DNA of 64,000 nucleotides from Cytophagales bacterium (lineage in GTDB: Bacteria > Bacteroidota > Bacteroidia > Cytophagales > VRUD01): NCBI GenBank assembly GCA_019456305.1, contig VRUD01000012.1, positions 3,531 through 67,530 on the forward strand. Reading direction: 5' to 3'. Under the pieces are notes generated by a model. It was not told the origin of the DNA, ran no database searches, and saw only the letters and a program-made list of their open reading frames with translations. A program made the position numbers and the translations under genes. Below, piece by piece: positions 3,362 to 59,508 of this stretch; the stretch's first letter is position 1; every line of letters begins with the position of its first letter.

Positions 3362-3457
3362 TAAGCAGTAAGCAATAGGCAGTAGACAATAGACAGTAGA
3401 CAAAAGACAGTAGACAATAGACAGTAGACAATGGACAATAAGACAATAGATTAATTG
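3343..3457. repeat. heptamer tandem array (GTAGTAA / ACARTAG units), family 'cagtagacaat'
   Basis: ggtagtaagtagtaagtagtaagcagtaagcaataggcagtagacaatagacagtagacaaaagacagtagacaatagacagtagacaatggacaataagacaatagattaattg. Related arrays at 11425-11450, 52985-53045, 53212-53255 (inverted) and 59296-59340. Confidence 0.9.
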
Positions 3458-6340: not shown

Positions 6341-6345
6341 AAAAA

Positions 6346-6394
6346 CGCATAGAGCATAGCGCATAGCGCATAGAGCATAGAGCATAGCACATAG
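6346..6394. repeat. (RGCATAG)x7 heptamer array
   Basis: cgcatag agcatag cgcatag cgcatag agcatag agcatag cacatag, starting 6 nt after the stop of the 4943..6340 CDS. Puts TAG in all three frames. Confidence 0.95.
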
Positions 6395-6400
6395 TGCCAT

Positions 6401-6431
6401 AACCCCGCACTTAAATTTATGTGCGGGGTAA
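6401..6431 (+). terminator. stem-loop after the 4943..6340 CDS (possible terminator, no clear U-tract)
   Basis: aaccccgcac-ttaaatttat-gtgcggggt; 9-10 bp GC-rich stem. Confidence 0.35.
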
Positions 6432-6532: not shown

Positions 6533-6601
6533 CATAATGTTAAAACACCTCAAAAACGCAGAGCGCAAATCGCATAGCGGTGAACCCCGCCTGTGGCGGG
6601 G

Positions 6602-6637
6602 CCATGCTCTATGCTCTATGCGCTATGCGCTATGCGC
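6602..6637. repeat. (CTATGCK)x5 heptamer array, inverted relative to 6346..6394
   Basis: ccatgct ctatgct ctatgcg ctatgcg ctatgcg, preceded by hairpin ccccgcctgtggcgggg (6586-6602). Puts ATG in all three frames. Confidence 0.95.
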
Positions 6638-7268
6638 TTTATTTATTATTACTTCAGCGAAGTGTCATAGCCAATCCTTTAAGATCGCCAAGTTCAAATA
6701 CAATGGCGGGGGCGATTGGTATGCTAACAAAACCTCTCTGCCTAACCTGATCGCATTTTGTAATAAGAACCTAAAGATGAACATTGCTGCTGAGGAAGAT
6801 ATTGTAGAAGCAGGCAGTCAGGAATTATTTTCATATCCATTTGTACATATGACAGGCCATGGTAATGTGGTATTCTCAAAACAAGAAGCATACAACCTGA
6901 GAAAATACCTTATAGGCGGAGGCTTTCTCCATATTGATGATAATTACGGGCTGGATAAATTTATCCGGGTGGAAATGAAAAAGGTTTTCCCTGAACTGGA
7001 TTTTGTGGAGCTGCCTTTTGATCATCCTATCTACCATCAGAAGTATAATTTTCCAAAAGGTTTGCCCAAAATCCATGAGCATGACGGCAAGCCGCCACAA
7101 GGGTTTGGCCTGATCTATGAAGGACGCCTCGTTTGCTTTTATTCATACGAATGTGACCTGGGCAATGGCTGGGAAGACCAGGTTATTTATAATGATCCTG
7201 AAGAGATAAGACGACAAGCACTGAAAATGGGAGCCAATATTCTCTCATTTGCGTTGACCGATTATTAG
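6618..7268 (+). CDS. DUF4159 domain protein
   Basis: FKIAKFKYNGGGDWYANKTSLPNL...YPFVHMTGHGNVVFSKQEA..LRKYL..GGFLHIDDNYG. I prefer the start at ATG 6618 (MRYALCALFIITSAKCHSQ, signal-like). The maximal ORF begins at 6537. Confidence 0.75.
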   Translation: MRYALCALFIITSAKCHSQSFKIAKFKYNGGGDWYANKTSLPNLIAFCNKNLKMNIAAEEDIVEAGSQELFSYPFVHMTGHGNVVFSKQEAYNLRKYLIGGGFLHIDDNYGLDKFIRVEMKKVFPELDFVELPFDHPIYHQKYNFPKGLPKIHEHDGKPPQGFGLIYEGRLVCFYSYECDLGNGWEDQVIYNDPEEIRRQALKMGANILSFALTDY

Positions 7269-8150: not shown

Positions 8151-8241
8151 CATGGCGCATAGCGCATGGCGTCCACCCTCATTCAAGCTCTTTTTCCCCG
8201 CCAACTGGCGGGGCCATGCGCTATGCGCTATGCGCTATCGC
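8151..8241. repeat. GCATAG-family inverted repeat with central hairpin
   Basis: catggcgcatagcgcatggcg ... ccccgccaactggcgggg (8196-8213) ... gccatgcgctatgcgctatgcgctatcgc. The last codons and the TAG stop of the aminotransferase (..AIAHSA*) are made of repeat units. Confidence 0.9.
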
Positions 8242-9684
8242 TCCCAAAATAACTTTACACGCTTCTTTGATCTCTTCTTTTGTAATAATTAAAGGCGGTG
8301 TTATTCTCATAGCGCTGTCACAGTAAAGAAACCAATCAACAAAAACCCCGGTGGTGTCAGAAACCCTACCTGACTGTTCCGTATTTCTCGGGGAGATACA
8401 TTTATCAATGATAGATTTTAATTGATCATAAGATTCAAACTGAAGCGCCATCATCAGTCCTTTACTTCTGATAGCCTTGATTTTGGGATGTGCTAATAAT
8501 TCGATGAATAGTCTTTCTTTTTCCGCTACTACAGCCCCCCCCAACCCCCCCGAAGGAGGGGCTTTGCCAACGCTTTTGCCAGCCCCCCCTAAATCCCTCC
8601 TGCCACTATTTCTTACCGAATCGGTGAATGGGTGAATGGGTGAATCGGTGAATCGCTTCGTTTTCCTGTTCTCCGTTTCTCCGATTCTCCGGTTCTCCGA
8701 TTCAGGGGGGCTTGGAGTTAGAGGGGGGAGGGGGGGGCTGGCAGTTGGGCTGATTAGTTCCAAAGAAGCGAGCCCTGCAGCACAGCAGACGGGATGACCA
8801 CCAAAAGTAGTGATATGTCCTAAAACAGGATTGGTTTTTAAGACAGACATAATTTCCTTTGAAGAGATAAAAGCGCCAAGCGGCATACCCCCTCCGATCG
8901 CTTTGCCGCAGCATAAAATATCCGGCACAACGTCAAAATGCTCAAAAGCAAACAGCAATCCTGTTCTGCCAAAGCCTGTTTGAACCTCGTCAAAAATTAG
9001 AAGTGTGCCCGACTCGCTGCATTTGTTTCTCAGTGTTTTTAAATATTCTTTGTCAGGTATTATTACACCCGCTTCTCCCTGGATGGGCTCTATAATAACC
9101 GCTGCAATTTTATCTGTGATATATTCCAGATCTTCAGTGTCATTGAATTTTATATGTCTTACCTCCGGTAATAATGGCCTGAACGCTCTTTTAAACACTT
9201 CGCTCCCGTTTAATGATAAGGCGCCATGCGTAGAACCGTGATAGGCATTTTGAAGTGAAATAATTCCAGTTCTGCCGGTAAATCTTTTGGCTAATTTTAT
9301 CGCCCCTTCTACCGCTTCACTACCGGAATTAACAAAATAGGTGCATTCTAATTGAGCAGGAAGATTTTCAGCAAGCTTTTTGGCAAGCATTACCTGTGGC
9401 GTTTGCACCAATTCTCCGTAAGCCATCAGGTGAAGATATTTATCAAGCTGCTCCTTGATCGCTTTTATAACTTCTGGATGACGGTGGCCTACATTATTCA
9501 CGCCAATCCCGGATATCAGGTCTATGTACTTTTTCCTACTTGCCCCGCTTGTCCCGGTCCTATCGGGTTTTTTGGGGGCTTTTCCAAACATATATACTCC
9601 TTCTGCGTAGTCAATCTCAAGCATAGAAGGAAAATCAGAAGTTTGGGCTAAATGGTTCAGGAAATCTTGTTTTATTGTGTTCAT
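8221..9684 (-). CDS. class-III (acetylornithine/GABA-type) PLP aminotransferase carrying in-frame repeat insertions
   Basis: ISGIGVNNVGHRHPEV, FVNSGSEAVEGAIKLA, LIFDEVQTGFGRTG, CCGKAIGGGMPLGAF, GGHPVCCAAGLA. ATG at 9684. Repeat-derived segments at 8530-8757 and 9543-9567. Confidence 0.85.
   Translation of the reverse strand: MNTIKQDFLNHLAQTSDFPSMLEIDYAEGVYMFGKAPKKPDRTGTSGASRKKYIDLISGIGVNNVGHRHPEVIKAIKEQLDKYLHLMAYGELVQTPQVMLAKKLAENLPAQLECTYFVNSGSEAVEGAIKLAKRFTGRTGIISLQNAYHGSTHGALSLNGSEVFKRAFRPLLPEVRHIKFNDTEDLEYITDKIAAVIIEPIQGEAGVIIPDKEYLKTLRNKCSESGTLLIFDEVQTGFGRTGLLFAFEHFDVVPDILCCGKAIGGGMPLGAFISSKEIMSVLKTNPVLGHITTFGGHPVCCAAGLASLELISPTASPPLPPLTPSPPESENRRIGETENRKTKRFTDSPIHPFTDSVRNSGRRDLGGAGKSVGKAPPSGGLGGAVVAEKERLFIELLAHPKIKAIRSKGLMMALQFESYDQLKSIIDKCISPRNTEQSGRVSDTTGVFVDWFLYCDSAMRITPPLIITKEEIKEACKVILGAIAHSA
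8583..8744. repeat. 162-bp GC-rich palindromic element, intragenic copy A (copy B at 27238..27399)
   Basis: About 158/162 identical to 27238..27399. Built from C-run/G-run termini and 8-mer arrays (GGTGAATS)x4 and (CTCCGNTT)x3 that can pair. Confidence 0.95.
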
Positions 9685-9700
9685 GTATTTGTGTGTTAGT

Positions 9701-9740
9701 GTGTTCACGTGAGCACTTGAACATATGAACACGTGAACAC
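9701..9740. repeat. CACGTG-containing palindrome (gtgttcacgtg ... cacgtgaacac)
   Basis: 17 nt upstream of the aminotransferase ATG. A related 85-bp palindrome lies 10 nt upstream of the MuiA-like gene (48632..48716). Confidence 0.85.
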
Positions 9741-10041: not shown

Positions 10042-11331
10042 ATGAAATTCTTATTAATCATTATCATCTTTTCCTTCAATAAAGATTCTCTTTCCAAAGC
10101 CGCCCTGATTGATACTATGCTTGCCGATAAATATTTTAATAAAGCTACTCAACTATTTAATAATGCCCAATATGACAGCTCTGTATTCTATCTACAAAAA
10201 GCAAGCGATATTTACCTGGCTTTAGCAAAGTCTGTTGAAGGATCAGCACAGAATTCCCCCTCTCCACTTGTGGAGAGGGGGCAGGGGGTGAGGTGGAAAA
10301 AATATGTTGAATGTAATAATGTATTGGGCAATACTTTTTATACTATAGCTGAATATAATAAAGCTGTGGATCATTTTAGCATTTCCGCTAAAATTGGTTT
10401 ATTAAAATTGGGGGGTAAGCATCTCTATATTGCTGATGCTTATACGGGTCTGGGAGTTGTGTACTGGATGAGACGTGAAAATGATAAAGCGCTCAATTTT
10501 CAAAAAAAAGCCCTGGAAATAAAAAGTGCATTCTATGAAGGCGATCATCCTCATATTGGTTTGTGTTATAATAATATAGGACTTATTTATAATGATCAGG
10601 GCGATTATTATACCGCATTGGAATATTTTAACAAAGCATTATCAATCTACATGAAACACATTGCAAACCACCAGCATCCTTTGTTTACTGCTAGTTATAA
10701 TAATTTAGGTCTTGTATTTTTTAATATAAAAAACTATGCAAAAGCCATTGAATGTCATCAAAAATCCCTGGAAATAAAATTAAAGACATTGGGTCCGGAT
10801 CATCCTGATCTGGCTATAAGCTATAATAATCTTGGGGACGTTTATCGAATTTATGGCAACTATGACAAGTCGCTTGAGTATTTTCATAAAGCAAGAGTAC
10901 TCATAGAAAATAAAATTGGCAAACAGCATCCTTATATTGCCCTCTTTTATTTTAATATCGGAAAAGTATATGCAGATAAAAGAAACCATGATGAAGCAAT
11001 GAATTATTATCAGAAGGCATTGAAAGTTTCTGTAAATATTTTTGGTCAATACCACCCGGATGTAGCTGATACATATTATGAAACCGGGAACATATTTGCA
11101 GCAAAAAAGGAACTTAATACTACATTGATCTATTACCAGAAAGCCCTGAAATCATTATTCAAAGAATTTTCTAATAACAGGGTTTTTATTAATCCTGTAA
11201 TACCCACTACATTTGAGAGCAAAAAAGAACGGGAGGAGTTTCTTAAGAAAATAAATTCTTTGCCTCTTTTGCTCGATGTGTTAGAGAGCAAGGCAGAGGC
11301 GTTTTATGAGAAATGGAAGATGTCACCCTAA
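10042..11331 (+). CDS. tetratricopeptide-repeat protein (kinesin-light-chain-like TPRs), possibly C-terminally truncated
   Basis: About 7 TPR_12-like units (..HPDLAISYNNLGDVYRIYGNYDKSLEYFHKA..). In-frame hairpin element at 10256-10296. The stop lies inside a repeat (11322-11354). Confidence 0.75.
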   Translation: MKFLLIIIIFSFNKDSLSKAALIDTMLADKYFNKATQLFNNAQYDSSVFYLQKASDIYLALAKSVEGSAQNSPSPLVERGQGVRWKKYVECNNVLGNTFYTIAEYNKAVDHFSISAKIGLLKLGGKHLYIADAYTGLGVVYWMRRENDKALNFQKKALEIKSAFYEGDHPHIGLCYNNIGLIYNDQGDYYTALEYFNKALSIYMKHIANHQHPLFTASYNNLGLVFFNIKNYAKAIECHQKSLEIKLKTLGPDHPDLAISYNNLGDVYRIYGNYDKSLEYFHKARVLIENKIGKQHPYIALFYFNIGKVYADKRNHDEAMNYYQKALKVSVNIFGQYHPDVADTYYETGNIFAAKKELNTTLIYYQKALKSLFKEFSNNRVFINPVIPTTFESKKEREEFLKKINSLPLLLDVLESKAEAFYEKWKMSP

Positions 11332-23647: not shown

Positions 23648-26600
23648 CTAATGTTTTATCAATTTAACATACCCGGAACTCACGCCATTACTCAATTTTA
23701 AAACGTACACCCCTTTCATCATTTTTACTACGTTATCATCAAGTTCAATCATATGATCCCCTGCAAATTGATACTGATCAACCAAAATAGCTATTTTCTT
23801 ACCCGGCAAATCAAAAATATTCAGCACAATATGTCCCGGCTCGTTCAACCGGTATGAAATAGTAATGCTTTCATCAAAAGGATTCGGATAAACCCGTAAC
23901 CCGAAACCCGAAACCCGAAACTCATTTATAGCAGTGGGGTTTTGAAATACCTGCCCGTCAGAGGAAGTAATATTTGACAACAGGCCTGCACCGTTTTCGG
24001 CCTTCACAGAAAAATAATAGGACTGCCCAACGATCAGGGTTAAGCCGGTATCTGTCAAAGTAACTATACCATTATCTGTCCAGCCAACGATGTCGCTGTC
24101 TCCGGGCATAGTACCTATGGCATACCGGTATTTTGCTATACCTGAATTGGTGTCGGTTGAAGGGGCCCAGTTAGCGGTAAGCTCCCCGGCAATGTAGGTG
24201 GTATCAATATCGGCAGCAGCGCCATCGTTAATAGCAGCAATGTCAGCAGGTGTAGTCCAGTCTATGTTTACACTTAATCCGGCAGGGGCAGACCAATTTT
24301 CTGCCGAATCTTTCACAATAGAGACTATTTTACAGGATGGTGTGGCCGGGCCTGCATTTTGAAACCTGATGTCATTGGCAGCTGCAGAGCCAAGGGTGAT
24401 CAATTCGGAATTGGCCCTAACTTTATATACTTTCAGGTCATCATACATCACGTTGGCATTGCCTGTTCTCAATGATATATAACTTCCGGTAGAATATGGT
24501 GAAGGATCAATCCACGAAGATACGAGTTGATCATCACGATACCCCTTTATTTCCCCTGTGGCAGGATTAAAGATCACCTTAAAGTCATACCACACACCGG
24601 GGTCTAAAATACAGGGGTCATTGGTTTGAATGGCCCAGGTATCATTTGTTACTTTATAGATCTGGCATTTATCCTGGTCAACGCGGTAGTACACGAAATA
24701 TGAATTTCCCCTGTTGGGCAGCGAGCCGTCATCAGAGAAGAAATGAATGCCGCTTCTCCGGTTAACACCTGAGCCGTTCATGTTTGCCTGCCAGTGGTAC
24801 AAATATATTTGTGTAGAACCCTGAGCTAATGAAGCATAAATATTGGTATTTCCCTGGCTTTCATCCGTTTGATGAATGGCGCCTGAATTGATCACCCAGA
24901 TACCGGCAGTATCCGTCCAATCCGGGTGAATGGCAATGTCAAAATGGTCATTAAAGAAACCATTATTGTCATTGGCTCTCCATTCAACGCCATTGAGATC
25001 AAGCGCCTGGTAAAATTGCAGATCAAGGCCGCTGCCTCCGGGATTATCTGCATCCGTAAACGTTGCCATGAAATCGGTTGTTTCAAAAAAACCCGGATTA
25101 CTGATTGATGTGGCGGGAGGCAAAAAGTCAACAGAGTCTAAATTGCAGCTCCAAATGGCATCCCAACCCGGGTTTACTGCTGAACCATCTGATGTAAACC
25201 TGAAGGTAATATCACCGCCCGAAGAAACGATGGTACCGGGCGAATTGGTACCGGTGAAAGGACTTCCGGGAATTTGTGGCGAGGCTGTACCTGGGCCGTC
25301 ATGTATATATAAATAATCCCAATTCAATTCAATATCAAAAAAAGTAAAGGACACAGTGATTGAAGCAGCGCCAGCAGGAGAAATGGTAAATAGATGGTCT
25401 TCATTATTGAAATAGGTTCCCAATTCACCGCCTGAATCTCTGAATAAACCCGAGCATAATGTTGTTGTTTGTGATTGGGCAGCAGGCGTGTTAAAGGAGG
25501 AACCACCAAAGCCGGAAGAATCAGCTACACACAATGTAGAAACCTGCCAGTAATAAATGGCATTGGAGGCAAGGCCTGTCAGGGTATAATTATTGGATGA
25601 AACATTTACGTAAGTCCAGGAGGCATCAAGATTTCGTTTGTATTTTAAAAGATACCCCAATGCACCTGCCACAGTGTCCCAGGTCAGGTCTGTGGTAAAA
25701 GCAGCCATATTACTTTCAGTGAGGTTGGTCGGTAGAGGACATGCCAGGGGAATCGTGTCTGATGTCCAGGCAGCTTCCCAGCCGGGATTGTTGGTGTTGC
25801 AGTCCGAACGAAATTCGATCAAAAAAGAGCCGCTTTGTGCAGTGATCGTCCCGGGTGAATTGGTGCCGGTATAAACGCCTGTCAGCGGATCATCTACCGT
25901 GGTTCCGTCATAAATATACAAGTAATCCCAGTCTGTTTCCAGGTCAAAAGAAAGGTAGGTTAGAGTCACCGAAGCAGCTCCGGCCGGGCTGATCAGCCAG
26001 AAGGATCGTTCATCATCAGCATAATTGGAAGCCGGCCCTCCGCTGTCATAAAATGTGTCGGATGAGGCCGTGTAGGTAGTAACAACCATACTATCATTGA
26101 TCAACTGGTAAAAATATTTCCAGTCCCAGTAAATACCCGGGTCGGTGTGCGTTTGATTTGGATAATGCTGGTGTCCCTTGATTTTAATACATCCCCCAAG
26201 CAGGCAGCTTGAGCTGCTGCCGGAACAGGCAGGCCCGGAATACGTTCTTAAAGGATTAATCCCGTAGTCATTGCAGATATCTTTTACAAGGTCTGCCGAA
26301 GCCTGGTACATTACCTGTGTGTACCAACCGGGCTGGCCGGCATATCCTTCATGCTCCAACCCAATGGTATATGGATTTTCTGAACCAACGTGCCAGCCTT
26401 TATCAACTTCGCAAACCATTTGCGTGATCTGTCCGTCTAAAGAACGTAATACGTAGTGAGCAGATACATTAGCAGCCGGATTCTGAAACCAGGAAATGGC
26501 TCCCGCATAAGATCCTTCAATATCGTGAATAACAACAGCAGAAATTAGTGTACCAGCCCTTGAAGAATAGTTGGAGGGGTCGGCCGGAACCCAAGTCACA

Positions 26601-27649
26601 CCTGGATAATCTATGCACGGTTGATTTGGTGATTTGATCTTATATTGAATATTATCATCACCGGTAACCGTATTATTGTTGATCATTACTTCTTTGGAAG
26701 ATAAGACACGGTAATTGTTCTTTCCAAAAACTTTTTGCAGGTTAATGTTATGATCCGGAATATTAAATGCTGAACAAAACTCACTATCATTCAATAAAGT
26801 CAATACTGAATAAATATGCGAATTAATTGCAAAATCATTAACCGTATTGTCATTCCGGGCAGGGCGAAAGCCAGTGGCTTTCGAGCCAGCCTGAGGGATG
26901 GAGCCAATGGGAATGGCTGAGCGAGGAATCTCCTTTGGATTTACCACCGAGTTCTCGGGGCGCGCGATTTTTGAATCCACGTGTAATTCACTCAACTCAA
27001 CAATAATTGTGATATAATCCACTGGATTTGCAGTGTGAATATTTTTGGAGTTTATTAGTGACGAAAATGCCGCTGCATAAGCCAAAATATTCTGACGAGG
27101 GTCGTTGATAATATCCTCTACAGCTATTCCTGAAAGGTTTGAAACAAGCTCCAGGTTATTTCTAAAATATCCTTTACCATCCAGCACAAGCCCCATTACA
27201 CCGTAGTAAGCAGGCAGACCTGTGCAGCTTAGAGCAGTCCCCCCTAAATCCCTCCTGCCACTATTCCTTACCGAATCGGTGAATGGGTGAATCGGTGAAT
27301 CGGTGAATCGCTTCGTTTTCCTGTTCTCCGTTTCTCCGATTCTCCGGTTCTCCGATTCAGGGGGGCTTGGAGTTAGAGGGGGGAGGGAGGGGCTGGCAGG
27401 GATAATATGCCTGATTCGGGTATTGGTATAGGCAATGGCTTCTAATAATCCCCCGGGTATGTCGGGATAATTAAGATATGCTTCCTGAAAATAATTTTTG
27501 TATTGTGTATCGGGTGCAACTGAAGGAGCAGCCCCCATTGAGCGGATTGCTTGTGCAAAACACTCTCCGCTCCAACCAAAGCCATGTGTGTAGCAGGCAA
27601 ACAACTGGTTTATGAACAATAATAAAAGTAGTAAGATTTTTTGTACCAT
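23648..27649 (-). CDS. large secreted multidomain protein: unknown N-terminal domain, PGRP/Amidase_2 N-acetylmuramoyl-L-alanine amidase, 2 CUB-like, FN3, LamG-like, FN3, T9SS CTD
   Basis: Amidase_2: VVIHDIEGSY..AISWFQNP.ANVSAHYV......Q.V....KGWHVG..N.YTIGLEHEG. CUB-like: DSGGP.SNY.....FWLISPAGAASVTLTY.SFDLE..WDYLYIYDG (twice). CTD: VYPNPFDESITISYRL...GVYVLKL. ATG at 27649. Confidence 0.85.
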   Translation of the reverse strand: MVQKILLLLLLFINQLFACYTHGFGWSGECFAQAIRSMGAAPSVAPDTQYKNYFQEAYLNYPDIPGGLLEAIAYTNTRIRHIIPASPSLPPLTPSPPESENRRIGETENRKTKRFTDSPIHPFTDSVRNSGRRDLGGTALSCTGLPAYYGVMGLVLDGKGYFRNNLELVSNLSGIAVEDIINDPRQNILAYAAAFSSLINSKNIHTANPVDYITIIVELSELHVDSKIARPENSVVNPKEIPRSAIPIGSIPQAGSKATGFRPARNDNTVNDFAINSHIYSVLTLLNDSEFCSAFNIPDHNINLQKVFGKNNYRVLSSKEVMINNNTVTGDDNIQYKIKSPNQPCIDYPGVTWVPADPSNYSSRAGTLISAVVIHDIEGSYAGAISWFQNPAANVSAHYVLRSLDGQITQMVCEVDKGWHVGSENPYTIGLEHEGYAGQPGWYTQVMYQASADLVKDICNDYGINPLRTYSGPACSGSSSSCLLGGCIKIKGHQHYPNQTHTDPGIYWDWKYFYQLINDSMVVTTYTASSDTFYDSGGPASNYADDERSFWLISPAGAASVTLTYLSFDLETDWDYLYIYDGTTVDDPLTGVYTGTNSPGTITAQSGSFLIEFRSDCNTNNPGWEAAWTSDTIPLACPLPTNLTESNMAAFTTDLTWDTVAGALGYLLKYKRNLDASWTYVNVSSNNYTLTGLASNAIYYWQVSTLCVADSSGFGGSSFNTPAAQSQTTTLCSGLFRDSGGELGTYFNNEDHLFTISPAGAASITVSFTFFDIELNWDYLYIHDGPGTASPQIPGSPFTGTNSPGTIVSSGGDITFRFTSDGSAVNPGWDAIWSCNLDSVDFLPPATSISNPGFFETTDFMATFTDADNPGGSGLDLQFYQALDLNGVEWRANDNNGFFNDHFDIAIHPDWTDTAGIWVINSGAIHQTDESQGNTNIYASLAQGSTQIYLYHWQANMNGSGVNRRSGIHFFSDDGSLPNRGNSYFVYYRVDQDKCQIYKVTNDTWAIQTNDPCILDPGVWYDFKVIFNPATGEIKGYRDDQLVSSWIDPSPYSTGSYISLRTGNANVMYDDLKVYKVRANSELITLGSAAANDIRFQNAGPATPSCKIVSIVKDSAENWSAPAGLSVNIDWTTPADIAAINDGAAADIDTTYIAGELTANWAPSTDTNSGIAKYRYAIGTMPGDSDIVGWTDNGIVTLTDTGLTLIVGQSYYFSVKAENGAGLLSNITSSDGQVFQNPTAINEFRVSGFGLRVYPNPFDESITISYRLNEPGHIVLNIFDLPGKKIAILVDQYQFAGDHMIELDDNVVKMMKGVYVLKLSNGVSSGYVKLIKH
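27238..27399. repeat. 162-bp GC-rich palindromic element, intragenic copy B
   Basis: See 8583..8744. Same orientation and same reading frame within a different gene. Confidence 0.95.
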
Positions 27650-27665
27650 AGGATAATTTTTGTTT

Positions 27666-27799
27666 AAATGACTATCCGCCTTTATAAACAATATTAGTCC
27701 CGTAGGGACGACCTGTTTGTAGAAAAAATGTCAATACAGCAATAAGCTCCGTAGGAGCGACCTGTTAAAACTTTTGTTTATCTTTGCGGATAGTCATTT
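27666..27799. repeat. 25-bp imperfect inverted repeats enclosing two 21-bp direct repeats
   Basis: aaatgactatccgcctttataaaca ... tgtttatctttgcggatagtcattt. Inside are gtcccgtagggacgacctgtt (27707) and gctccgtaggagcgacctgtt (27746). Confidence 0.85.
27779..27786 (+). promoter_or_regulatory. candidate -7 promoter box for gldH
   Basis: TATCTTTG, 70 nt upstream of ATG 27856, embedded in the right inverted-repeat arm. Confidence 0.4.
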
Positions 27800-28452: not shown

Positions 28453-28616
28453 CACCTAACCCCCTCTCCACTAACGTGGAGAGGGGGAACTTTGAAGGGT
28501 AGAACATAAAATATTGAATACATCTATTATAATCAAGACTGCAGAGGAACAAAAAAAGAAATTAGAAAAAACTCCCCCTCTCCACGTTAGTGGAGAGGGG
28601 GCCGGGGGGTGAGGTG
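28453..28616. repeat. 164-bp element whose two arms are themselves hairpins (ccctctccac-NNNN-gtggagaggg)
   Basis: Left 28453-28487, right 28574-28616. The same ~41-bp unit lies in the TPR CDS (10256-10296); a variant is at 34211-34243. Confidence 0.9.
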
Positions 28617-28912
28617 AACGGTATAACAAACTGGTGCTCCCGCTTTTGTTCAGTTTTTTGCGTACAATATGCCCCAAATATAAGCCGAAACACCCAAGAA
28701 TATATCTTTGATAGCAACTAACTTACTGATATTCAATAACTTACAATTTAAAGTAAAGAGGGGTGACGAAAACAGGAATAGAATAACATTTTAAATTGAC
28801 TTCAAAAAAATATCGAATATCAAACACCGAATAATGAATGTAAAATTTGACATTGGTTATTCAATGGTCATTGGTATAGCGCCATCCACTGGATGACGGA
28901 AAGTTGGTTAAC

Positions 28913-34548: not shown

Positions 34549-37500
34549 ATGAATTTAAAAACCTTCATTGTCTTATTCGTATTTTACAACTGGTTTACCG
34601 GTAATTTATTCGCCCAATCAAATGATTGTGCAACTGCCACACCAATAGACCTTTCTACCGGTTCTGCTTGCGTTACAGGAACTACTGTTGGCGCTACCAG
34701 TGATAATATTTTATACGGGGGTTGTAATACTTCAGCAGTTAACGAAGTTTGGTATACTTTTGTAACTAATGGAACGGTTAATGATTTTACAGTCACTCCC
34801 GCAACTTTAACTAACTCGATGATCGTAGTAGACGGTACCGGGTGTATTGATGGTGTATTTCAAACTTGTGCAGCAGTTATGGGAAGCAGTACAGTAACTG
34901 ATTCCTGGAGCTTCCCTCCGGGTACACAGGTTTGGATAGCTGTAGCAAGTAATCAAGGTACGGAAGGGATTTTTGACCTATGCATCACCTCATCAACTCC
35001 CCCACCTGCTCCAGGAAAAACCTGTGCTACAGCTACGCTGATTTGTGATAAAACTCCTTTTAGTCTCACAAGCACGCCTATGGGTTCAAGTGGCCTACAA
35101 CCTTCATGTTTTTTAAATGCTGTTCAACAGGATGTCTGGTATCAGTTTACCGTTGGTCAAACCGGTACTTTGGAATGGCTCGCTACACTTGTTGGTGGTC
35201 AGGCTGAATATGACTGGGCAATTTTTGATATTACTATGGGCTGCCCCGGTATTGAAGTTTCCTGCAACTATAATTTTGCAACTGGCAACAGCGGGAGTGT
35301 AGGAATGCAGTCAGGTGTCATGGGCTGCCCCCCGGCTATGGGTTCACCGTCAATTAAGGAAAAATGTCAACCCATCACAGTTACTGCAGGAAATACATAC
35401 GTGATCTTAATTGACAACTGGTCTGCAAATGGCGTAGGCTTTGACTTCACCTGGGGCGGAACTTTTGAAATGGCGCCCACTTCCGCTTTAATAGTTTCAC
35501 CTGATACAGGATGCGGCTCAGTTACGGCATGCTTTACGAATAACAGTGTTGGTGCAACGAGCTATGACTGGAATTTTGGTGACGGCTCTATGAATTCTAC
35601 TGCCTTTACTCCGCCTTGTCATACCTATTCTACACCGGGAACGTACTTAATTTCCTTAACCACTACCTCAGCTTCGGGTTGTACAGACGTCTCTTCTGCG
35701 TCCGTACAGGTATTCCAGGGGCCTACTTCCATTTTTACTGCTTCCCCATCACCAATCTGTATAGGCGATACCGCTATCATCACCTATGCCGGCAACGCAA
35801 CACCAGGGGCAACCTATACATGGAATTTTGCTGGCGGTACCATTATCACCGGTACAGGACAAGGGCCTTATGCAATTGGTTGGTCCACATCAGGAGTAAA
35901 AAATATTACGCTGCAGGTTACAGAAAACGGGTGTCTATCTACAATTACCACTATTTCAATAACCGTAACGCCCGCACCAACCTCAACGTTTACCGCTACA
36001 ACGCCACTTTGTTTTGGTGATTCCTCTGTGGTCACTTATACCGGCACAGCGGGTGTTGGCGCTGCGTATAACTGGGACTTTGACGGAGGGATTATCCTCT
36101 CAGGAACCGGACAGGGGCCCTATCAAATTAGTTGGTCTACTTCGGGTATAAAAAATATTACCCTTTATGTTATTGAGAATGGGTGTTCTTCTGATACTAC
36201 TACAATATCGGTTACAACACCGGCTCCCCTTACCCTAACGCTTTCTAAAACTGATGTAACCTGCTTTGGCGCCTGTAATGGCACTGCTTCTGCTTCAGCA
36301 GTTACCGGGGGTACCTCCCCCTATACATATCTTTGGGATGATCCATTATCACAAACTACAGTTACTGCTACAGGTTTATGTGCAGGAACCTATGCCGTTA
36401 CAGTAACCGATGCTAATGGATGTACAATTACCTGTGGCGGCTTTTTATTAACTTGTTTTGAAATTACAAGCATTTTGGTTGATGTATGCACAGCAGGTAA
36501 CGAAGGAGAACAGGAAATGTTTGCATTTCAGGTTGGGAGCAGTTCATTGAATACTGCTGATATGAGCGTTGTCTGGCCCAATAATTCCTGGAAGGGTGTA
36601 TGTACTGACCCGGTCTTTGTGGCTGATGCAAACAGCACCATTACCGGTGGCGGGTACCTGGTAGAACCACCGGGCGGTATCATACCTGCCGGTGCTTCGG
36701 TAATTATGGTTACAAGCACGGCCTTTAATACTTCTTTTGCCAGCTTTGTGGATCTCAGCGATACGGTTTATATCATATTCCAGTGTGCAGGCAGTCTGAC
36801 TGGCCATTTTGCCAACTATTCAGCAGGAGGCGGAACCAGAACATTAACCGTTACTTTTGCCGGCTGTGGCGCTGATATTGTTTCTTATGAAAGGGATTTG
36901 CTTAGTTCATCAAATGGAGCAGCCGTTAACTATGATTTTGCAGGAAATCCTACTTATTTCAACAACGGTTGTACCGCACCTTTTGATAACTTTGCTGCAA
37001 CACTTTGCGTTATCGTTTCTGAACCAGCTCCAATATCCTTATCCACCACTACATCCCCCACCACCTGTGCCGGTGACTGTGACGGATCTGCTACGGTAGT
37101 TGTTGATTCAGGCGGTACGCCCGGTTTTACTTATTCATGGAATGATCTTGGTTCACAGACTACTGCTACTGCCACAGGACTATGTGCCGGTATTTTTACA
37201 GTGGTGGTTACAGATGCCAATGGATGCACGGCAACTGCAACTGACACAGTGAATGATGGCCCGCTTGCTTTAGCCGGATTTACCTACAATGGAAATCAAT
37301 GTTTAACCGGCAACAACTTTATTTTTACGAATACGGGAACGCCTCCTGGACCTGGGATAAGCTATACCTGGAGTTTTGGAGATATGGGTACAAACACATT
37401 AGAAAATCCCACCCATACTTATGCTGATACCGGAAGCTATACCGTTATACAAACAGTGACCAATGGAGTTTGTTCTGCTGTTTTCTCAATAGTCATAACG

Positions 37501-40500
37501 GTTTTTCCTGAACCAACAGCTTCTATTGCCGGAACCAATGTTACCTGTAATGGAGTTTGTAACGGTGCAGCAGACCTTACAGTTACAGGAGGAACAGGGC
37601 CATATACCTGGCTGTGGAGCCCTGGTGGAGAAATTACCGAAGATCTGATAGGATTATGTCCCGGAACTTATGATGTCACCGTTACTGATGTGAATGGCTG
37701 CCAGGACAGCGCTGTAATTGTGATTACAGAACCGCCTTTATTATCCTTGTTAATTTCAAAAACCGACCTTATCTGCAATGCCGTATGTAACGGAACGGCT
37801 GACCTAACCGTTACAGGAGGTACTACACCTTATACATATTTGTGGTCGCATGGTCCAACAACCCAGGATGTAACCGGGCTTTGTGCCGGTACCTACCAGG
37901 TTGTTGTTACCGATTCGAATGGCTGCCAGGATTCTATTTCTGTAGTAATTACGGAGCCCACAGCATTATCACTATCCGTTTCCGGAACCAACCTTATTTG
38001 TAATGGCATGTGTGATGGTGCAGCAGATCTCACTGTTATAGGCGGTACTACCCCTTATACTTATGCGTGGTCGCATGGCCCTGCAACCCAAGATGTAACG
38101 AGTCTTTGTGCAGGTACTTACGAGGTGATTGTAACTGATTCCAATAGCTGTCAGGATTCCATTGATGTTATTATAACTGAACCTCCCCTTCTCACAGTTG
38201 CTGCTACAAGCACCGATCTGCTTTGTAATGGAGTATGTGATGGCACTGCTTCTGCTGCCGTTTCGGGTGGAACAAGTCCCTACACCTACCAATGGGATGA
38301 TCCTGCAGGTCAAACTACCGCAATTGCTGATAGCCTGTGTGCAGGAACATACCAGGTAGTGGTTACCGATACCAATGGCTGCCAGGATTCTGCAACTGTT
38401 ATTATCAACCAACCTCCTGTTTTAAGTACACTCATTATTGGCGACAGTCTAAATTGTAATGGTGTGTGCGATGGTGCGGCAGATCTGACCGTTGTCGGTG
38501 GAACGCCACCCTATACCTATTTATGGTCAAACCTTGAAACTACCCAGGATATATCCGGTTTATGTGCAGGTCTGCATACTGTTGATGTTTTTGATGTGAA
38601 TGGGTGCAATATGTTTGATGCTATAGTCATCGGTGAACCTCCTTTGCTAACGGCAAGCATTGTTGATTCAAATGTCAGTTGTAATGGAGTTTGTGATGGC
38701 GCTGCAGATGTGACCGTTTCAGGCGGCATACCCTCGTATTCCCACTCCTGGTCAAACCTTCAAACCACCGAAGATATAACGGCTTTATGTGCCGGTACTT
38801 ATGCTGATACCATAAGGGATGCCAATGGATGTACGGTGATCGTAAGTACAGTGATCAGCGAACCTACAGCACTTGCAACCTTAATAGCAGGTACGGATAT
38901 TACTTGTAATGGTGTCTGTGACGGTGCTGCCGACTTAACCGTTACCGGTGGTACTACACCCTATACCTTTTCGTGGTCAAATGGACCTACAACTGAAGAT
39001 ATTTCGGTGTTGTGTGCCGACACATTTAATCTTGCCGTCACAGATTCCAACGGATGTACCATTTCAGATTTGGTGATCATAAATGAGCCTCCGGTTCTTT
39101 TAACAACCATTTCCGGAACAAATGTCACTTGTAATGGAGCTTGTAACGGATCGGCAGACCTTACTGTTACCGGAGGCACACCCGGCTATTCTTATTTGTG
39201 GAGCCCCGGTGGAGAAACTTCGCAAGACCTGATGGGAGGCTTGTGTCTCGGTACCTATGATGTAACCGTTACCGATTTGAATGGCTGCCAGGATAGCGCC
39301 ACAGTGATCATTACCGAACCTTTGGTTCTTTCAACTGCCGTTGCCGGAACTAATGTTAGTTGTAATGGATTTTGTAATGGATCGGCAGACCTGACCGTTA
39401 CAGGCGGCACACTGCCTTATTTGTTCTTATGGTCAAACCTTCAAACCACAGAAGATATTTCCGGCTTGTGTGCGGATACGTTTAGCGTTACGGTTACCGA
39501 TTCCAATCTATGTACAGGTTCAGAAACTGTTATTATCACGGAACCCCCTCTGCTGACGGCTAATGTAGTTGGTACCAATATTAGCTGCAACAGCGTCTGT
39601 GACGGATCAGCAGACCTTACCGTTTCAGGGGGTACGCTGCCTTATTCCTATCTATGGTCCAATACTGATACTACAGAAGATATATCCGGTTTATGTCCGG
39701 GAACTTATAGCGTAACGGTCACGGATTCTAATGGATGTACAGCTTCAGACAGTGCAATTGTTATTGAGCCAACCCCTATTGCGCTTACCGTTTCAGGCAC
39801 GGATGTAACCTGCAATGGCGCCTGTGACGGACAAGCAAGCGCCAGCGTCTCTGGCGGAACTACCCCTTATACTTACCAATGGAATGATCCATTTTTACAA
39901 ACCACACCAACTGCTGATAGCTTGTGCGCAGGTACTTACCAGGCGCTCATAACCGATGCAAACGGCTGCCAGGATTCTGCAACCGCTGCCATCATTGAGC
40001 CTCCGGTATTAACTGCTTCTACCGCAGGAAATGATGCAAGCTGTAATGGCGTATGTGACGGTGATGCTACTGTAACTCCTTCAGGTGGTACATCACCCTA
40101 TACCTATCAATGGGATGATCCCTCATTCCAGATAAACGACACGGCAACCGGTTTATGTGCGGATACAGTCAACGTAACAGTGACAGATTCCAACGGATGT
40201 ACTTTTGATACAAGCTATACGGTAAATGAACCAGCTGCCATGACGCTAACCCCCGGTAGCGTAGATGCCACCTGCGGGATAGCAAATGGAGAGGCATCAG
40301 TGTTCGTTTCAGGCGGTACGAGCCCTTATACCTATTTGTGGTCACCGGGTAGTCAAACTACCGATACGATTACAGGACTATCTGCAGGCGCCTATACGGT
40401 TGTGGTTACAGACGCAAATCTTTGCAGTGATTCAATAACCATATCCGTAAACGATGCCGGAGCTCCCACTGCCAGTATAGTAGATAGTATAAATGTTAGT

Positions 40501-43500
40501 TGTAATGGAGGCAATGATGGCAGCGCTACAGCGACAGGTTCTGGTGGTGTGAGACCCTTCACCTGGTCTTGGTCACCTCCTGCTGTAAGTACTGATTCAT
40601 TTGCTACAGGTTTACAAGCCGGAACTTACACAATAACCATCACTGATGATTTAGTATGCGTAGCCACAGCAACAGTAACCATATCAGAACCACTTGTCCT
40701 GATAGCTTCCATTACTTCAAATGTGCCGGTGGCTTGTAATGGTGATAGTACAGGCAGCGCTACAGTTTCTGTTTCCGGTGGTACACCGGGTTATACCTAT
40801 TCCTGGTCGCCTTACGGTGGAACGGGATCCATTGCCGTAAACTTGATTGCAGGAACTTATACGGTTACCGTTACCGATACAAACGGATGTGATACAACCG
40901 CCTCTGTTACCATCAGCGAACCTCCCCCTCTTACAACAGCTATTACAGATACAAGTGTAAGCTGTAACGGTACCTGTGACGGTGCAGCCGATCTGACCGT
41001 TACCGGAGGAACTTTTCCTTATATATTTTCATGGTCCAATACAGCTACTACTGAAGATATAGCCGGTTTATGCGCTGATACTTTTTATATTTTGGTTACC
41101 GATCTTAATTTATGTACTATATCAGACAGCGTGATCATCACTGAACCTGATTCACTTATTGCCGGCATAGCCGGTACGAATGTGAGTTGTAAAGACTCTT
41201 GTAATGGTGCAGCAGATCTAACGGTTTCAGGAGGCACACTTCCCTATTCCTGGTTATGGTCAACTTCAGATATAATTGAAGACCTGGCCGGCTTATGTGC
41301 AGCTACTTATAGTGTTACTGTTACGGATTCCAACGGATGCACCGTTTCGGAAAGCATCATTATCAGTGAACCTGGCGTACTTGCCACCGGCATTACAGAC
41401 ACGAATGTGAGTTGTTTCGGAGCTTGTGACGGGTCAGCAGATCTGACAGTGGCAGGCGGCACCTCGCCTTATACATACCTCTGGTCAAACGGATTTACAA
41501 CCCAGGATATTTCAGCATTGTGCCCTGATACTTTTATCGTAACCGTTACCGATACCAATTTATGTACAATATCAGATACTGCGATCATTACACAACCTAA
41601 CGTACTTACCGCAGCCATAGCCGGAACAAATGTAAGTTGTAACTTAGCTTGTGACGGTACAGCAATCCTGACTGTAACGGGTGGCACACTGCCAACTACT
41701 TTTTTATGGTCAAACGGAGCAGGAACGAAGGATGTTTTTAGCTTATGTGCCGATACTTACAACGTTACGGTTACCGATGCCAATGGTTGTACTGCTGCGG
41801 ATACGGTGATCATCTCTGAACCTTTAGCGCTTACTGCATCCATAGCAGGAACAAATGTAAGCTGTAACAGCGCCTGTGATGGTGTGGCTGACCTGACCGT
41901 TACAGGTGGTACAGCGCCTTATGATTACCTGTGGTCAAACCTTGCTACCATAGAAGACATATCCGGCTTATGTGCTGATACCTACAACGTTACCGTTACC
42001 GATACGAATGGATGTACAGCTTCAGATACTGTGATCATTACTGAACCATTGGCGCTAACCGCAGCCATAGCCGGAACAAATGTAAGTTGTAACGGAGATT
42101 GTAATGGTGCAGCAGACCTAACCGTTGCAGGCGGTATTTTACCCTATTCTTATTCATGGACAAGTGGAGATAGTATTGAAGATCTAATAAACTTATGTGC
42201 AAACGTTTATGATGTTACCGTTACCGATAGCAACGGATGCACGGTTATCACCGGCATTGTAATTAGTGAACCTGCTGCGCTTACTTCCAACATTGCAGGA
42301 ACAGATCTTAGTTGTAATGGCGCCTGTGACGGAGCAGCGGATCTAAGCGTAATAGGCGGCGTCATTCCATACACTTATTCCTGGTCAAGTGGAGATTCTA
42401 CAGAAGACCTGACCAATATTTGCGCTGACACTTTTATTGTTACTGTTACAGATTCCATTGGATGTACATTATCTGATACCATCATCATTACCGAACCTGC
42501 AATACTCATAGCAACCGATTCAGCTACGAATGCCAGTTGTAACGGAGGTTCTGACGGGGCAATTGATCTTACTGTTACCGGTGGTACGCTTACCTATACC
42601 TATGTATGGTGCCACGGGCCCACGAGCGAAGATGTAACCAACCTGATTGCCGGCAATTATTGTGTTACTGTGACAGATGGTAATGGGTGTACAGCTACAG
42701 ATAGTGTAACCATCAGCGAACCCGATTCGTTAGTATTGACAACCTCAACGATTGACGCAAATTGCGGTCAGAATGACGGACAAGCTTCTGTGATCGTTAC
42801 AGGCGGTGTTGTTCCATATTCTTACTCATGGAATACCTTTCCTGTGCAAGCAAATGATACTGCTTTTAACTTGCTATCAGGAATTTATACAGTTACGGTT
42901 ACTGATTCCAATATTTGTACACAAACAGCCACTGTAACAATTAGTGATTTAGGTGGCGGTACGCCAACAATTACCTTGAATAAGAATGAAACCTGTTTTA
43001 ATTTTCCTTGTGATGGGTCAGCCACTGTTACAATGACAGGGGGTACGCCTGGTTTTACTTATTTATGGGACAATTCAGATCCTGATTCTACTGCAACAAC
43101 GTTATGTGCAGACACACATACAGTAACGGTGACTGATGCAGTGGGCTGTGTTTCTATTGCACAGGTGGTCATTACTAAACCAGATGCAATAAATATTAAC
43201 ATTTCTTCCTCTGGCGCTCTTTGTAATGGCGATAGTTCCGGTGTGGCAACAGCCACAGTTACAGGAGGCACGCCAGGATATACATATTCATGGACGTCTT
43301 ACGGAGGGAATGATTCAATTGCCGACAGCTTGATTACCGGGGTTTATACGCTTGTTGTTTTGGATGCTGCCGGATGTTTTGCTGCGGGCGCTACAGTCAT
43401 TGGTGAACCGCCTCCTTTAACTGCAACGGTTACAGTCACGAATGCTTCCTGTAATGGCTACTGTGATGGTTTAGCCACGGTAACACCCTTAGGAGGCACA

Positions 43501-46500
43501 TTTCCTCCTTATTTCTATTTATGGTCAGATGGTCAGGATACTTCTACTGCTGTCGGCTTATGCGCAGCTACTTATTGTGTAACAGTTACAGACGCGAACA
43601 ATTGTACATGGGATACCTGTGTTACTGTGAATGAGCCGCCTGCTATTGTGCTTACAACCGGCACAATAGATGCTACCTGTGACAGCAGCAATGGAGCAGC
43701 TTTTGTAAATATTGTTTCAGGGGGCATAGCTCCTTTCACATACCAGTGGAATGATGGGGGCTCACAAATAACTGATACTGCTACCGGTTTACCTTCAGGA
43801 ACCTATACTGTGGTTGTTACAGATTCAACCGGCTGCCTGAATTCTGCTACTGTCGTAGTTATAGATGTAGGGTCTCCAACGGCTGCGATTATTTCAAGCG
43901 GGGATGCAAGCTGTTTTGGTTTATGTGACGGGTTTGCTGTTGTGAGTGCAGCAGGCGGGACTTCTCCATATACCTATTTATGGGATGACTCTAATTCAAC
44001 CACCGGTGCGTCAACAGGGAATATTTTATGTGCCGGGTTTTATTCTGCTACTGTAGCGGATGTAAATGGCTGCAAAGCTTTTGATACGATCACGATCAGT
44101 GAGCCGGATTCTTTAATTGCTGCCTTTACTACGGTAGATGAGGGCTGCTACAATGCCTGTGACGGGCAAGCCACGGTAAGTGTAATCGGGGGGACAGCGC
44201 CTTTCAGCTATCTATGGATCAATGATCCTCTATTCCAGACCACTCCAACGGCAGACAGCTTATGTGGCGGCACCTATACGGTTCAAATTACTGATAGTAA
44301 TGGCTGTATCTCTGCTGCTGATGTTACAGTTGCTGCTGCCCCCTTACTTGATATAGCGCCAATAATCACTACCGATGCTACTTGTGATTCTGCCAATGGT
44401 ACTGCATCTGCTACTGTGATCGGTGGCGTTTTTCCTTATACTTATTTATGGGTAAATGGCAGTGGAGATACAGTATCCACTTCATCAATTGCTACGGGGC
44501 TGCCAGGAGGCGTATATACAATAACCGTTACAGATGCTACCGGATGTGATACTTCAGCGATTGCCAATGTGAATGACGAACCCATACCTACACTTTCACT
44601 AAATTCTATTGTTGATCTTACCTGTTTTGGAGATAGTAGCGGTTCAATAACGGTTTCCATAGCATCCGGAGGCGCTCCGCCTTTTAGCTTTAGCTGGGAT
44701 AATGGAGATACAACAGCTACCGCTAACAATCTTACAGCAGGAACTCATATTGTTGTAGTAACAGATTCAAACGGCTGTATTGCATCTGCAGACACCACCC
44801 TTACAGAACCATCTCCTATTAACGCTGCCATTTCATCCCAAACTCCACCTACTTGTCCCGGAGCTTGTAATGGACTGGCTACGGTCAGTTCATCTGGCGG
44901 AACTACTCCATACACCTACCAATGGGATGATCCTTTAGCACAGACAACCGTAACTGCTGTTGGCTTATGTGCAGACACCCATATTGTATATGTATCAGAT
45001 GCAAATGGCTGTCCGGGAGATAGCAGCACGGTAATACTTGTTGATCCGGATACCATTGTAATAACGCCTGTTTTAATTCAAAACATAAGTTGTAGTGGGT
45101 TTTGTGATGGGGTAATTACAGTTACCGTTTCAGGCGGTACTCCAAGCTATATTTCTTATTGGCCTGCTACAAATGATTCTGCACTTACTGCAACCAACTT
45201 GTGCCCTGGTACCTATACCGTATTGGTTACAGATGACAATAACTGCCTGGAATCTGATACTTTTTCAATCAGTCAACCACCTACCCTTGTGTTATCATTG
45301 GATACTTCATTGGCTGATACCTGCGGCAGGTCCAGTGGCATAGCTATGGTCAATACAAGCGGTGGAGCTTCTCCTTATTCTTATTCATGGAACACATTTC
45401 CGGTTCAAACCAATGATACTGCTACCGGTTTAGCAACCGGGACCTATACCGTAACGGTAACAGATACGAACGGATGTATGGACAGCATAAACGTAGTTGT
45501 TGATAATATTCCGGGCCCTGCTATTGACACTTTGCTCATTTTACAGCAAATAATTTGTACAGGCGATAGCAATGGAATCGTTACAGTTACCGTAAAGGAA
45601 GGCGCACCACCCTATACCTATAGCTGGTCACCAATAGCAGGGAGCGCTGATACTGTTTATGGTTTATATGGCGCTCAATGGTATGCGGTTACGGTTACAG
45701 ATAATAATGGTTGCTTCACTGAGGATAGTATTTTGGTTCCCGAACCTGCTGCTTTAACTGCTAACATCACTAATTCTCCTGAAAGCTGCACCTTTGCCTG
45801 TAATGGTACTGCCATGGTTTCTATTTTAGGCGGAATACCTCCTTACACCTATCAGTGGAAGGATTCGCTTGGAATAATAATACCTGGAGAAACAAATTCA
45901 ATTGTCACAAGCCTATGTGCCGGAACTTATGGTGTAACTGTGACAGATAGTATAGGATGTGTGACCAATTCAAGCGTTTCAATCTCATCGTCCGTTTTTT
46001 CTTCCGGTACAACTATTACCGATGTAAGCTGTAAAGGATTATGTGATGGCAGTGTTACGATATCTCCCAGTGGAGGAGGTAATGGCCCTTATCTTTACTT
46101 TTTTGACAGGGATAGTTTTGCTATCGCTTTAGCTGATACTACTGTGGTTGGTTTATGCCCGGGATCTTATCAATATTCTATATTAGATACTATCCTGGGC
46201 TGTTTTACAGAAGATTCAATAGCAATTACCGAGCCTGCTTCATTGTTTGCAACAAAAAAGCGTACACCTGAAATTTGTACCAATAGCCAAGGTACTGCAT
46301 CAATATTGCCAACAGGGGGAACTCTTCCCTATACATACAACTGGACAAGTGGCGATACTACCCAAACAGCAACGGGCTTAACTGAAGGAATTGATACTGT
46401 AACAGTAACCGATAATAACGGATGTACCATTTTAGATACGGTAATGATCAGTAGAATTTACGATACCCTGATAACAACAATTGATACTTTATCAGAAAGC

Positions 46501-51080: not shown

Positions 51081-51228
51081 GGTGTATAGCATATGGCGCA
51101 TGGTGTATAGCATATGGCGCATGGCGGGCATATGCCCGACCGTATGGTCGCATGACGTATGGCGAATAACGCATAGAGCAAGGACCATAGCATTGAACGC
51201 CATGCACTTTGCTCTATGCGCTATGCTC
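51047..51228. repeat. GCATAG-family array plus a 21-bp tandem duplication and palindromes
   Basis: gcgcatagagcatagagcatagcgcatagcgcat; gcgcatggtgtatagcatatg x2 (51075-51116); ggcatatgcc; ...gctctatgcgctatgctc. Confidence 0.9.
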
Positions 51229-52945: not shown

Positions 52946-52978
52946 AGGAATAAGGAAATAGGGAATTCATCAATTAAT

Positions 52979-53262: not shown

Positions 53263-53267
53263 ACTGA

Positions 53268-57020: not shown

Positions 57021-57100
57021 GTTGGCAGTTGGCAGTAGGCAGTTGGCAGCAGGCAGTTGGCATAGGGTAGAAGATGGTAATACGGTAATACGGTAATATG
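57021..57100. repeat. tandem heptamer array (GTTGGCA-type x6) followed by (GGTAATAC)x3
   Basis: gttggca gttggca gtaggca gttggca gcaggca gttggca; ggtaatacggtaatacggtaatatgg. Confidence 0.9.
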
Positions 57101-59300: not shown

Positions 59301-59508
59301 TAAGTAGACAGTAGACAGTAGACAGTAGACAATTGACAAAAAAAAGAGACAGCAGGGAATGGCTTATAGTTTTAACTGTGACTATTTACTAATTTACAAT
59401 ATCTAATTTTCCACATGAGCCTGAAGAAATTCAGGTTTATAAATTCAATAATTCAACTTTAAATTCGTATATTCGCATATAAGATTATATAAATATAAAA
59501 ACATTTTG

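Follow-up and report, generated by a model that had tools for sequence, protein, structure and literature searches.

A palindromic repeat found in frame within unrelated protein-coding genes of Cytophagales

How does nearly the same peptide of 54 residues come to lie within two unrelated proteins of one bacterium? The question is raised by a 64,000-nucleotide stretch of DNA from a Cytophagales bacterium (contig VRUD01000012.1 of assembly GCA_019456305.1, positions 3,531 to 67,530; hereinafter the window), in which a palindromic element sits inside the open reading frames (ORFs) of a secreted amidase and of a class-III aminotransferase. Our analysis of these copies, their host proteins and further relatives of the element suggests that it is probably a non-autonomous piece of palindromic mobile DNA whose surviving copies have been restricted by selection to the open phase and to loops that tolerate them, and are translated there.

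Two near-identical inserts in unrelated proteins

The original prediction held that 8583..8744 and 27238-27399 represent the same element in the same orientation and codon phase, and a gapless alignment of 165 nt (8580-8744 against 27235-27399) bears this out: the copies are 98% identical, lie 18.6 kb apart in unrelated genes, and are both placed within long minus-strand ORFs at the same phase (offset 1 mod 3). The length of 162 bp proposed there stands for the net insertion (54 codons); the common sequence has 3 bases more at its low-coordinate end. The terminal 27- to 38-mers of the element each occur exactly twice in the window, where shuffled sequences would be expected to yield 0. The four differences had been described correctly in detail: two are synonymous (T at 8611 for C at 27266, AGA/AGG, both Arg; G at 8638 for C at 27293, CCC/CCG, both Pro), one is Pro/Ser (8733 G, 27388 A), and the Ala/Thr difference (8583 C, 27238 T) falls at the element boundary. 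The element has a guanine-plus-cytosine (GC) content of 57% as compared to 39% for the window. The phase used by the hosts is the sole stop-free one of the six; as at least one open frame is present in 61% of shuffled versions of the element, an open frame is by itself unremarkable, and the informative point is its use by every copy described below.

Copy 1 (8580..8744, minus strand) lies in the ORF at 8221..9732 (minus strand), which codes for a class-III Aminotran_3 protein of the acetylornithine/putrescine aminotransferase family, and follows the helix ...AAGLASLELI. Copy 2 (27235..27399, minus strand) interrupts a loop in the N-terminal domain of a secreted N-acetylmuramoyl-L-alanine amidase of 1347 residues, coded by the ORF at 23648..27691 (minus strand), which combines Amidase_2, two CUB and fn3 domains with the Por_Secre_tail of the type IX secretion system (T9SS). 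The peptide encoded by copy 2 is (A)SPSLPPLTPSPPESENRRIGETENRKTKRFTDSPIHPFTDSVRNSGRRDLGG; the flanking peptides given in the original prediction, ...AIAYTNTRIRHII and ...SCTGLPAYYGVMGLVLDG, agree with the translation of the ORF, and ...IRHIIPASPSLPPLTPSPPESENR... is an example of a peptide spanning an insert junction.

Comparison with homologs, as had been suggested along with that prediction, indicates insertion in both proteins. The segment is missing from all 120 amidase homologs that we retrieved: the stretch LLEAIAY...GVMGLVLDG measures 91 residues in the window amidase and 37-41 in the homologs (one of them truncated, with 19). Likewise, more than 100 aminotransferase homologs of about 393 residues are devoid of it, and the matches of the window protein to both the Aminotran_3 model of Pfam and entries of the PDB break exactly at the insert (query residue 327/328). 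When the amidase N-terminus was modeled with AlphaFold from a 61-sequence alignment, the predicted local distance difference test (pLDDT) score came to 38-60 over the insert and 91-98 on either side of it; the insert thus takes the form of a loop of low confidence flanked by well-folded stretches.

The N-terminal domain of the amidase contains two more lineage-specific inserts that are missing from 60 homologs. One, at window positions 26855-26977, comprises 41 residues (DSKIARPEN...GFRPAR), contains the hairpin CGAAAGCCAGTGGCTTTCG and is again modeled with low confidence; the other, at about 27560-27595, comprises 12 residues (CYTHGFGWSGEC) that follow the signal peptide. We leave the domain itself unnamed: an MltF-like identity was considered and rejected, the Foldseek matches to the lytic transglycosylase MltF being non-significant (E ~3).

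A repeat family dispersed among host genes

A word-indexed protein search with the 53-residue peptide returned no match, which the index-free scan subsequently showed to be a limit of its sensitivity. That scan, with HMMER and the 54-residue peptide against 1.84 billion (1.84e9) representative proteins, recovered 16 proteins, of which 14 are genuine matches (68-98% identity) that bear the module, with the consensus SPPLTPSPPESEKRGIGETERRKTKRFTDSPIHPFTDSVRNSGG, at differing positions in unrelated proteins. The remaining two (P0252, P0256) were rejected as translated tandem octamer arrays, i.e., microsatellites. At least 11 unrelated families of host proteins carry the module, including biotin carboxylase, inositol monophosphatase, SAM hydroxide adenosyltransferase, aspartate kinase, an NAD-dependent epimerase, an ABC ATPase, a PglZ response regulator, TPR proteins, a Y_Y_Y propeller protein and SpoIIE phosphatases. 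Six of the 14 matches come from one 'Cytophagales bacterium' metagenome-assembled genome (MAG) at NCBI and others from JGI, ENA and another NCBI MAG; every match with a named source belongs to Cytophagales/Bacteroidota.

We fetched the DNA of nine matching loci, and the window element proved to be 89-97% identical at the DNA level to its copies in unrelated genes of a Cytophagales MAG. An nhmmer profile then delineated 13 distinct copies of about 130-165 nt from five sources, in about 168 kb of sequence and in 12 host genes. Two of these turned up independently of the protein search: one, in a GT2 glycosyltransferase, is diverged, and the other is the second of the two copies in aspartate kinase. 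The catalog by orientation and frame that the original prediction had proposed gives a uniform picture rather than random phasing: all 13 copies are intragenic, in sense orientation and in the frame of an intact host ORF, and this one frame is open in every copy, with the other five almost always containing stops. Moreover, the gaps in the alignment of the 13 copies span 3, 9, 21, 33 and 42 columns, each a multiple of 3. Nine of the copies were ascertained via the protein search, which is blind to copies without an open frame, and four are unbiased; that all four of the latter are intragenic and in phase is suggestive and not decisive. A 57-residue ORF, P0255, may represent an intergenic copy. 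The fetched MAG loci and the window have no orthologs in common.

Exact scans with 20-21-mers from both ends and the center of the element found no copy in genome contigs, where two Prevotella loci contain a short common motif; they returned none and then eight chance matches, in GC-rich organisms, in metagenome contigs, and plain octamer microsatellites in viral contigs. A plasmid collection yielded one irrelevant Burkholderia octamer match. In the literature that we searched, whose coverage is incomplete such that an earlier account may exist, we found no family of this kind described for Bacteroidota.

Among seven of the copies, substitutions are spread evenly over the three codon positions (24/25/32), and nonsynonymous codon differences exceed synonymous ones by 231 to 57. 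These two observations indicate that the DNA rather than a selected peptide is conserved, and the peptide is without evident purifying selection beyond the frame staying open. Given the 89-97% DNA identity in unrelated genes and the lack of a synonymous excess, the repeat is, on sequence grounds, dispersed DNA and not a convergent peptide. The preference of the original prediction for mobile DNA over convergent linkers is upheld by the same evidence, with the mobility itself being what we infer from it. The constancy of the consensus across 14 proteins, together with the near-invariance of the half encoding RFTDSPIHPFTDS, could also be explained by a functional peptide module, such as a linker, a short linear motif or a localization signal, that was spread by domain shuffling and kept by selection at the protein level. 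However, apart from the codon-level pattern, the hosts, which range from cytoplasmic enzymes and regulators to a secreted amidase, have nothing in common, the insert has low confidence in the AlphaFold model, the DNA is palindromic, and closely related orthologs are devoid of the insert. We hence regard such a module as very improbable.

The sites of insertion are compatible with the host folds, as seen in the amidase model, at the domain-boundary position in the aminotransferase and in biotin carboxylase. In the last of these, the element adds a clean insertion of 42 residues between residues 278 and 279 of the solved homologs, in the turn preceding the FYFLEMNTR strand.

We also observed that, in four MAG host genes, the protein predicted at NCBI starts a short way ahead of the element and lacks a large part of the length of the corresponding ENA call: 307 versus 561 residues (P0241/P0257), 232 versus 320 (P0242/P0258), 318 versus 533 (P0244/P0259) and 407 versus 581 (P0247/P0261). 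The elements may disturb gene calling.

Hairpin architecture and a possible mode of spread

That the repeat forms a hairpin, as had been proposed, is real, though the pairing is imperfect: folded as DNA the element reaches -38.9 kcal/mol (z = -4.9) and as RNA -66.5 kcal/mol (z = -3.4), and the hairpin is kept in every copy folded (z from -1.6 to -5.0). Its arms consist of about four tandem octamers, GAATSGGT facing GNTTCTCC on the plus strand, with a GC-rich shell outside. In copy 2, one arm (27271..27310) contains about 4.5 tandem units of GAATSGGT, which on the coding strand form an array of GATTCACC encoding RFTDSPIHPFTDS, and is nearly invariant among the 13 copies. The opposite arm (27327..27358), with the octamers GNTTCTCC on the plus strand and GGAGAANC on the coding strand, encodes ESENRRIGETEN and pairs with the former with a mismatch every 4-8 nt. 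The GC-rich outer shell at the high-coordinate end (27359..27399; GGGGGGCTTGGAGTTAGAGGGGGGAGGGAGGGGCTGGCAG) and the segment 27235-27270 (CAGTCCCCCCTAAATCCCTCC...) together constitute an imperfect terminal inverted repeat, CAGCCCCCC / GGGGGGCTG, which is extended to TGCCAGCCCCCCC / GGGGGGGGCTGGCA in copy 1; most MAG copies have the inverted-repeat ends AGCCCC / GGGGCT. Across copies, the arm of GATTCACC units is markedly better conserved than the opposite one, which would fit a protein-binding site, though this is a guess.

The stable RNA fold and the retention of the hairpin in all copies might point instead to a role at the RNA level, such as translation pausing, stabilization of the mRNA or ribosome skipping like that of the mitochondrial 'byp' elements, with the peptide being irrelevant or never made. 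Yet, skipping or excision needs no open frame, while 13 of 13 copies and all their indels keep it. The paired columns of the hairpin are invariant across copies, such that no compensatory base pairs are seen and covariation is uninformative either way, and nothing in Rfam 15 scores above its gathering threshold, the two generic hairpin matches staying well below theirs (24.7 bits where 97 are required, and 19.3 where 70 are). Accordingly, we give very little credence to an RNA-level explanation.

In the scenario that we favor, the family would be dispersed in AT-rich (34-40% GC) genomes of Cytophagales/Bacteroidota as a core hairpin of tandem octamers (GGAGAANC facing GATTCACC) wrapped in a GC-rich shell that ends in CAGCCCC...GGGGCTG. 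When such an element lands in a gene, five of the six combinations of phase and orientation would bring in stop codons and be purged, and insertions in the open phase would survive only where the extra 40-55 residues, rich in Pro, Ser, Glu and Arg and predicted to be disordered, fall in a surface loop or turn. The amidase copy would accordingly be transcribed and translated as a tolerated, probably neutral loop of the N-terminal domain. Transposition, by an enzyme acting in trans, as well as translation and neutrality are what we infer in this scenario.

Several points weigh against this proposal. No intergenic copy was seen in the roughly 168 kb, a small and partly biased sample, and random insertion followed by a filter does not obviously predict this; about 13% of the window is non-coding, and its other hairpin and heptamer repeat families are mostly intergenic. 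The closest amidase homolog is 47% identical, and hence there is no empty-site allele. The Pfam-annotated ORFs of the window and the gene tables of about 100 kb of related loci, which cover part of the genome, contain no transposase, RAYT or other recombinase and no parent insertion sequence (IS) with matching ends. Finally, no consistent target-site duplication (TSD) is found among the copies. The search for one that had been suggested with the original prediction yielded a CTG...CTG direct repeat flanking both window copies and only these, as it does not recur in the MAG copies; it may be part of the inverted repeat, extending CTGCCAGCCCC / GGGGCTGGCAG.

The aminotransferase locus provides a further view of how these inserts come and go. 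There, we identified another family of GC-rich palindromes, family B, about 100 nt long and with the termini CAGCCCCCCTAAATCCCCCC(A/G)AAGGGGGG..., which likewise occurs in frame inside genes. Its copies lie at 8524-8582 in the window and, among the related loci, at 2257-2372 of L003, 10416-10516 and 11785-11885 of L023, and 8073-8190 of L022; in the MAG genes they are in frame in both orientations, and one Y_Y_Y regulator gene contains two with opposite internal orientations. The window copy is half an element (8524..8582, minus strand) that directly abuts copy 1 and is homologous to part of the L003 insert at the same site. The aminotransferases of L003 and L004 are near-orthologs of the window protein (88% and 87% amino acid identity over aligned residues; 81% and 78% by BLASTP), and each bears a different 114-nt insert at the exact position of copy 1, that of L003 being family B. 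Thus, one loop holds three inserts in three near-orthologs (window 8524-8760, L003 2240-2380, L004 960-1100) and none in distant homologs. Either this site is a hotspot, or one element is exchanged for another there, by nested insertion or by conversion via their common ends.

This configuration lends itself to the explanation that recombination or gene conversion is the main way in which the element spreads, with copies replacing or invading family B shells already present in genes via the common termini CAGCCCCCCTAAATCC.../...GGATTTAGGGGGGCTG. The half element abutting copy 1, the full family-B-like element at that exact site in L003 and the third, different insert in L004 speak for this account, as do the match between the outer ends of the 162-bp element and those of family B, the layered or nested shells of some copies (cy_PglZ, L036) and the failure to find either a TSD or a transposase in the window or related loci. 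Nevertheless, no recognizable older element stands beside the amidase copy, the biotin carboxylase copy is a clean insertion with a minimal shell, and a first insertion would be needed in any case; we therefore consider conversion as the main route quite unlikely. Another proposal is that the element is a specialist of coding sequence, which integrates or converts preferentially where DNA is transcribed or translated, or where a palindrome already exists within a gene, and which lives essentially only in genes of free-living Cytophagales. The three differing inserts at one aminotransferase loop together with 13 intragenic copies out of 13 would be the signature of such a specialist, an idea that we deem unlikely while still worth bearing in mind. 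Were it true, essential enzymes would continually gain and exchange disordered loops, making the element an engine of loop evolution and not a passively filtered MITE (miniature inverted-repeat transposable element). As for an artefact of assembly or chimerism, repeats are indeed prone to mis-assembly, but the window copies lie inside continuous long ORFs with differing flanks and members of the family are present in independent assemblies from ENA, JGI and NCBI, which renders its probability negligible.

A 20-mer from the element shell, GGGGCTTGGAGTTAGAGGGG, is also present in two Prevotella MAGs (L001 6019-6060; L002 3630-3700), beside G-rich hairpins such as CCCCGCCCCCGTTCGGGGGTTGGGGGG. GC-rich palindromes of the shell-like kind may hence be common across Bacteroidota.

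Precedents and implications

The closest precedent is offered by the Rickettsia palindromic elements (RPEs). In the accounts of RPE-1 and its relatives (Ogata et al. 2000, 2002) that are summarized in PMC10969869 and PMC3733652, these are palindromic repeats of about 100-150 bp found in frame in many unrelated, seemingly functional genes at fold-compatible sites, where they code for a conserved peptide, and about half of them are intragenic according to the former. Similarly, the element described here is a dispersed palindrome of the 100-150 bp class (in copies of 165 nt), in frame in many unrelated and intact genes, with a conserved encoded peptide and positions that fit the host fold. It differs in its host, a Cytophagales lineage with gliding/T9SS genes and full biosynthesis as against the reduced, obligately intracellular alpha-proteobacteria that host RPEs, in its arms of tandem octamers within a GC-rich shell in an AT-rich genome, and in that 13 of 13 copies seen are intragenic. 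No Rickettsia protein was among the matches to the peptide in the scan of 1.84e9 proteins. Judged by that scan and by architecture, rather than by RPE consensus sequences, the element appears not to be a member of RPE-1 to RPE-10. In functional terms, it is a match to the RPE-like protein-coding palindromes, from a sequence-unrelated family and in a phylum new for the kind.

Intragenic in-frame copies are also known for MITEs such as ERIC, BOX and those of Anabaena (PMC10969869, PMC3184786). Like these, which occasionally make in-frame fusions as well, the element is small and dispersed, encodes no transposase, forms hairpins and has terminal inverted repeats; unlike it, typical MITEs are mostly intergenic, with defined TSDs and a recognizable parent IS. 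A third group, the intragenic repetitive extragenic palindromes (REPs), comprises GTAG- or CGTC-tagged hairpins of 20-40 bp that go with a RAYT gene (Di Nocera et al. 2013, PMC3733652). The element resembles them in being palindromic, in lying inside genes and in adding residues in loops. Nonetheless, a REP/REPIN identity was rejected, given its length of 130-165 nt, its ends CAGCCCC/GGGGCTG without the GTAG/CGTC tag and the lack of a Y1 transposase in the window. Outside bacteria, the GC clusters of yeast mitochondria are GC-rich mobile palindromes that invade an AT-rich genome, including its coding sequence (in frame in var1); they are organellar and much shorter than the element, and in some cases the ribosome bypasses them instead of translating them.

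To our knowledge, in-frame 'selfish' palindromes are a textbook phenomenon for Rickettsia only, where they are usually explained by relaxed selection in a shrinking genome. That a family unrelated in sequence does likewise in AT-rich Cytophagales, in essential enzymes, suggests that this route of protein evolution is a more general one; the enzymes affected include biotin carboxylase, aspartate kinase, inositol monophosphatase and the secreted amidase, and close relatives with differing inserts at one loop make it a tractable case. There are also practical consequences, as the inserts split domain models in two (Aminotran_3 in the present case), coincide with the shortened gene calls in a public MAG and fragment metagenome assemblies.

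The window is rich in other repeats. The amidase ORF itself contains an in-frame heptamer array (23890-23922; CGAAACC, complement GGTTTCG) just before the T9SS C-terminal domain, with the peptide RVSGFGLRV and a 97%-identical counterpart at 58594-58626. A further GC-rich hairpin repeat, CCCCCTCTCCAC..GTGGAGAGGGGG followed by CAGGGGGTGAGGTG, occurs at 10249-10298, 28460-28493 and 28568-28624, once in frame in the ORF of a TPR protein (peptide SPSPLVERGQGVRW) and twice between genes. Tandem heptamer arrays (GCATAGM, CAGTAGA and others), often as inverted pairs that give long hairpins, are numerous and mostly lie between genes (3348-3452, 6328-6411, 6601-6640, 51030-51228, 52967-53271, 57022-57084 and 59284-59360); they resemble the heptamer repeats of some Bacteroidetes, cyanobacteria and Beggiatoaceae (PMC4679880). 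An ORF of 4146 residues at 34549-46989 consists of dozens of Cys-rich repeats of 225 nt (75 residues) and is the source of most direct-repeat families in the window. Lastly, a small ORF at 55158-55724, with HNH_repeat domains of the kind associated with homing endonucleases, is situated between two genes of the UDP-glucose/GDP-mannose dehydrogenase family.

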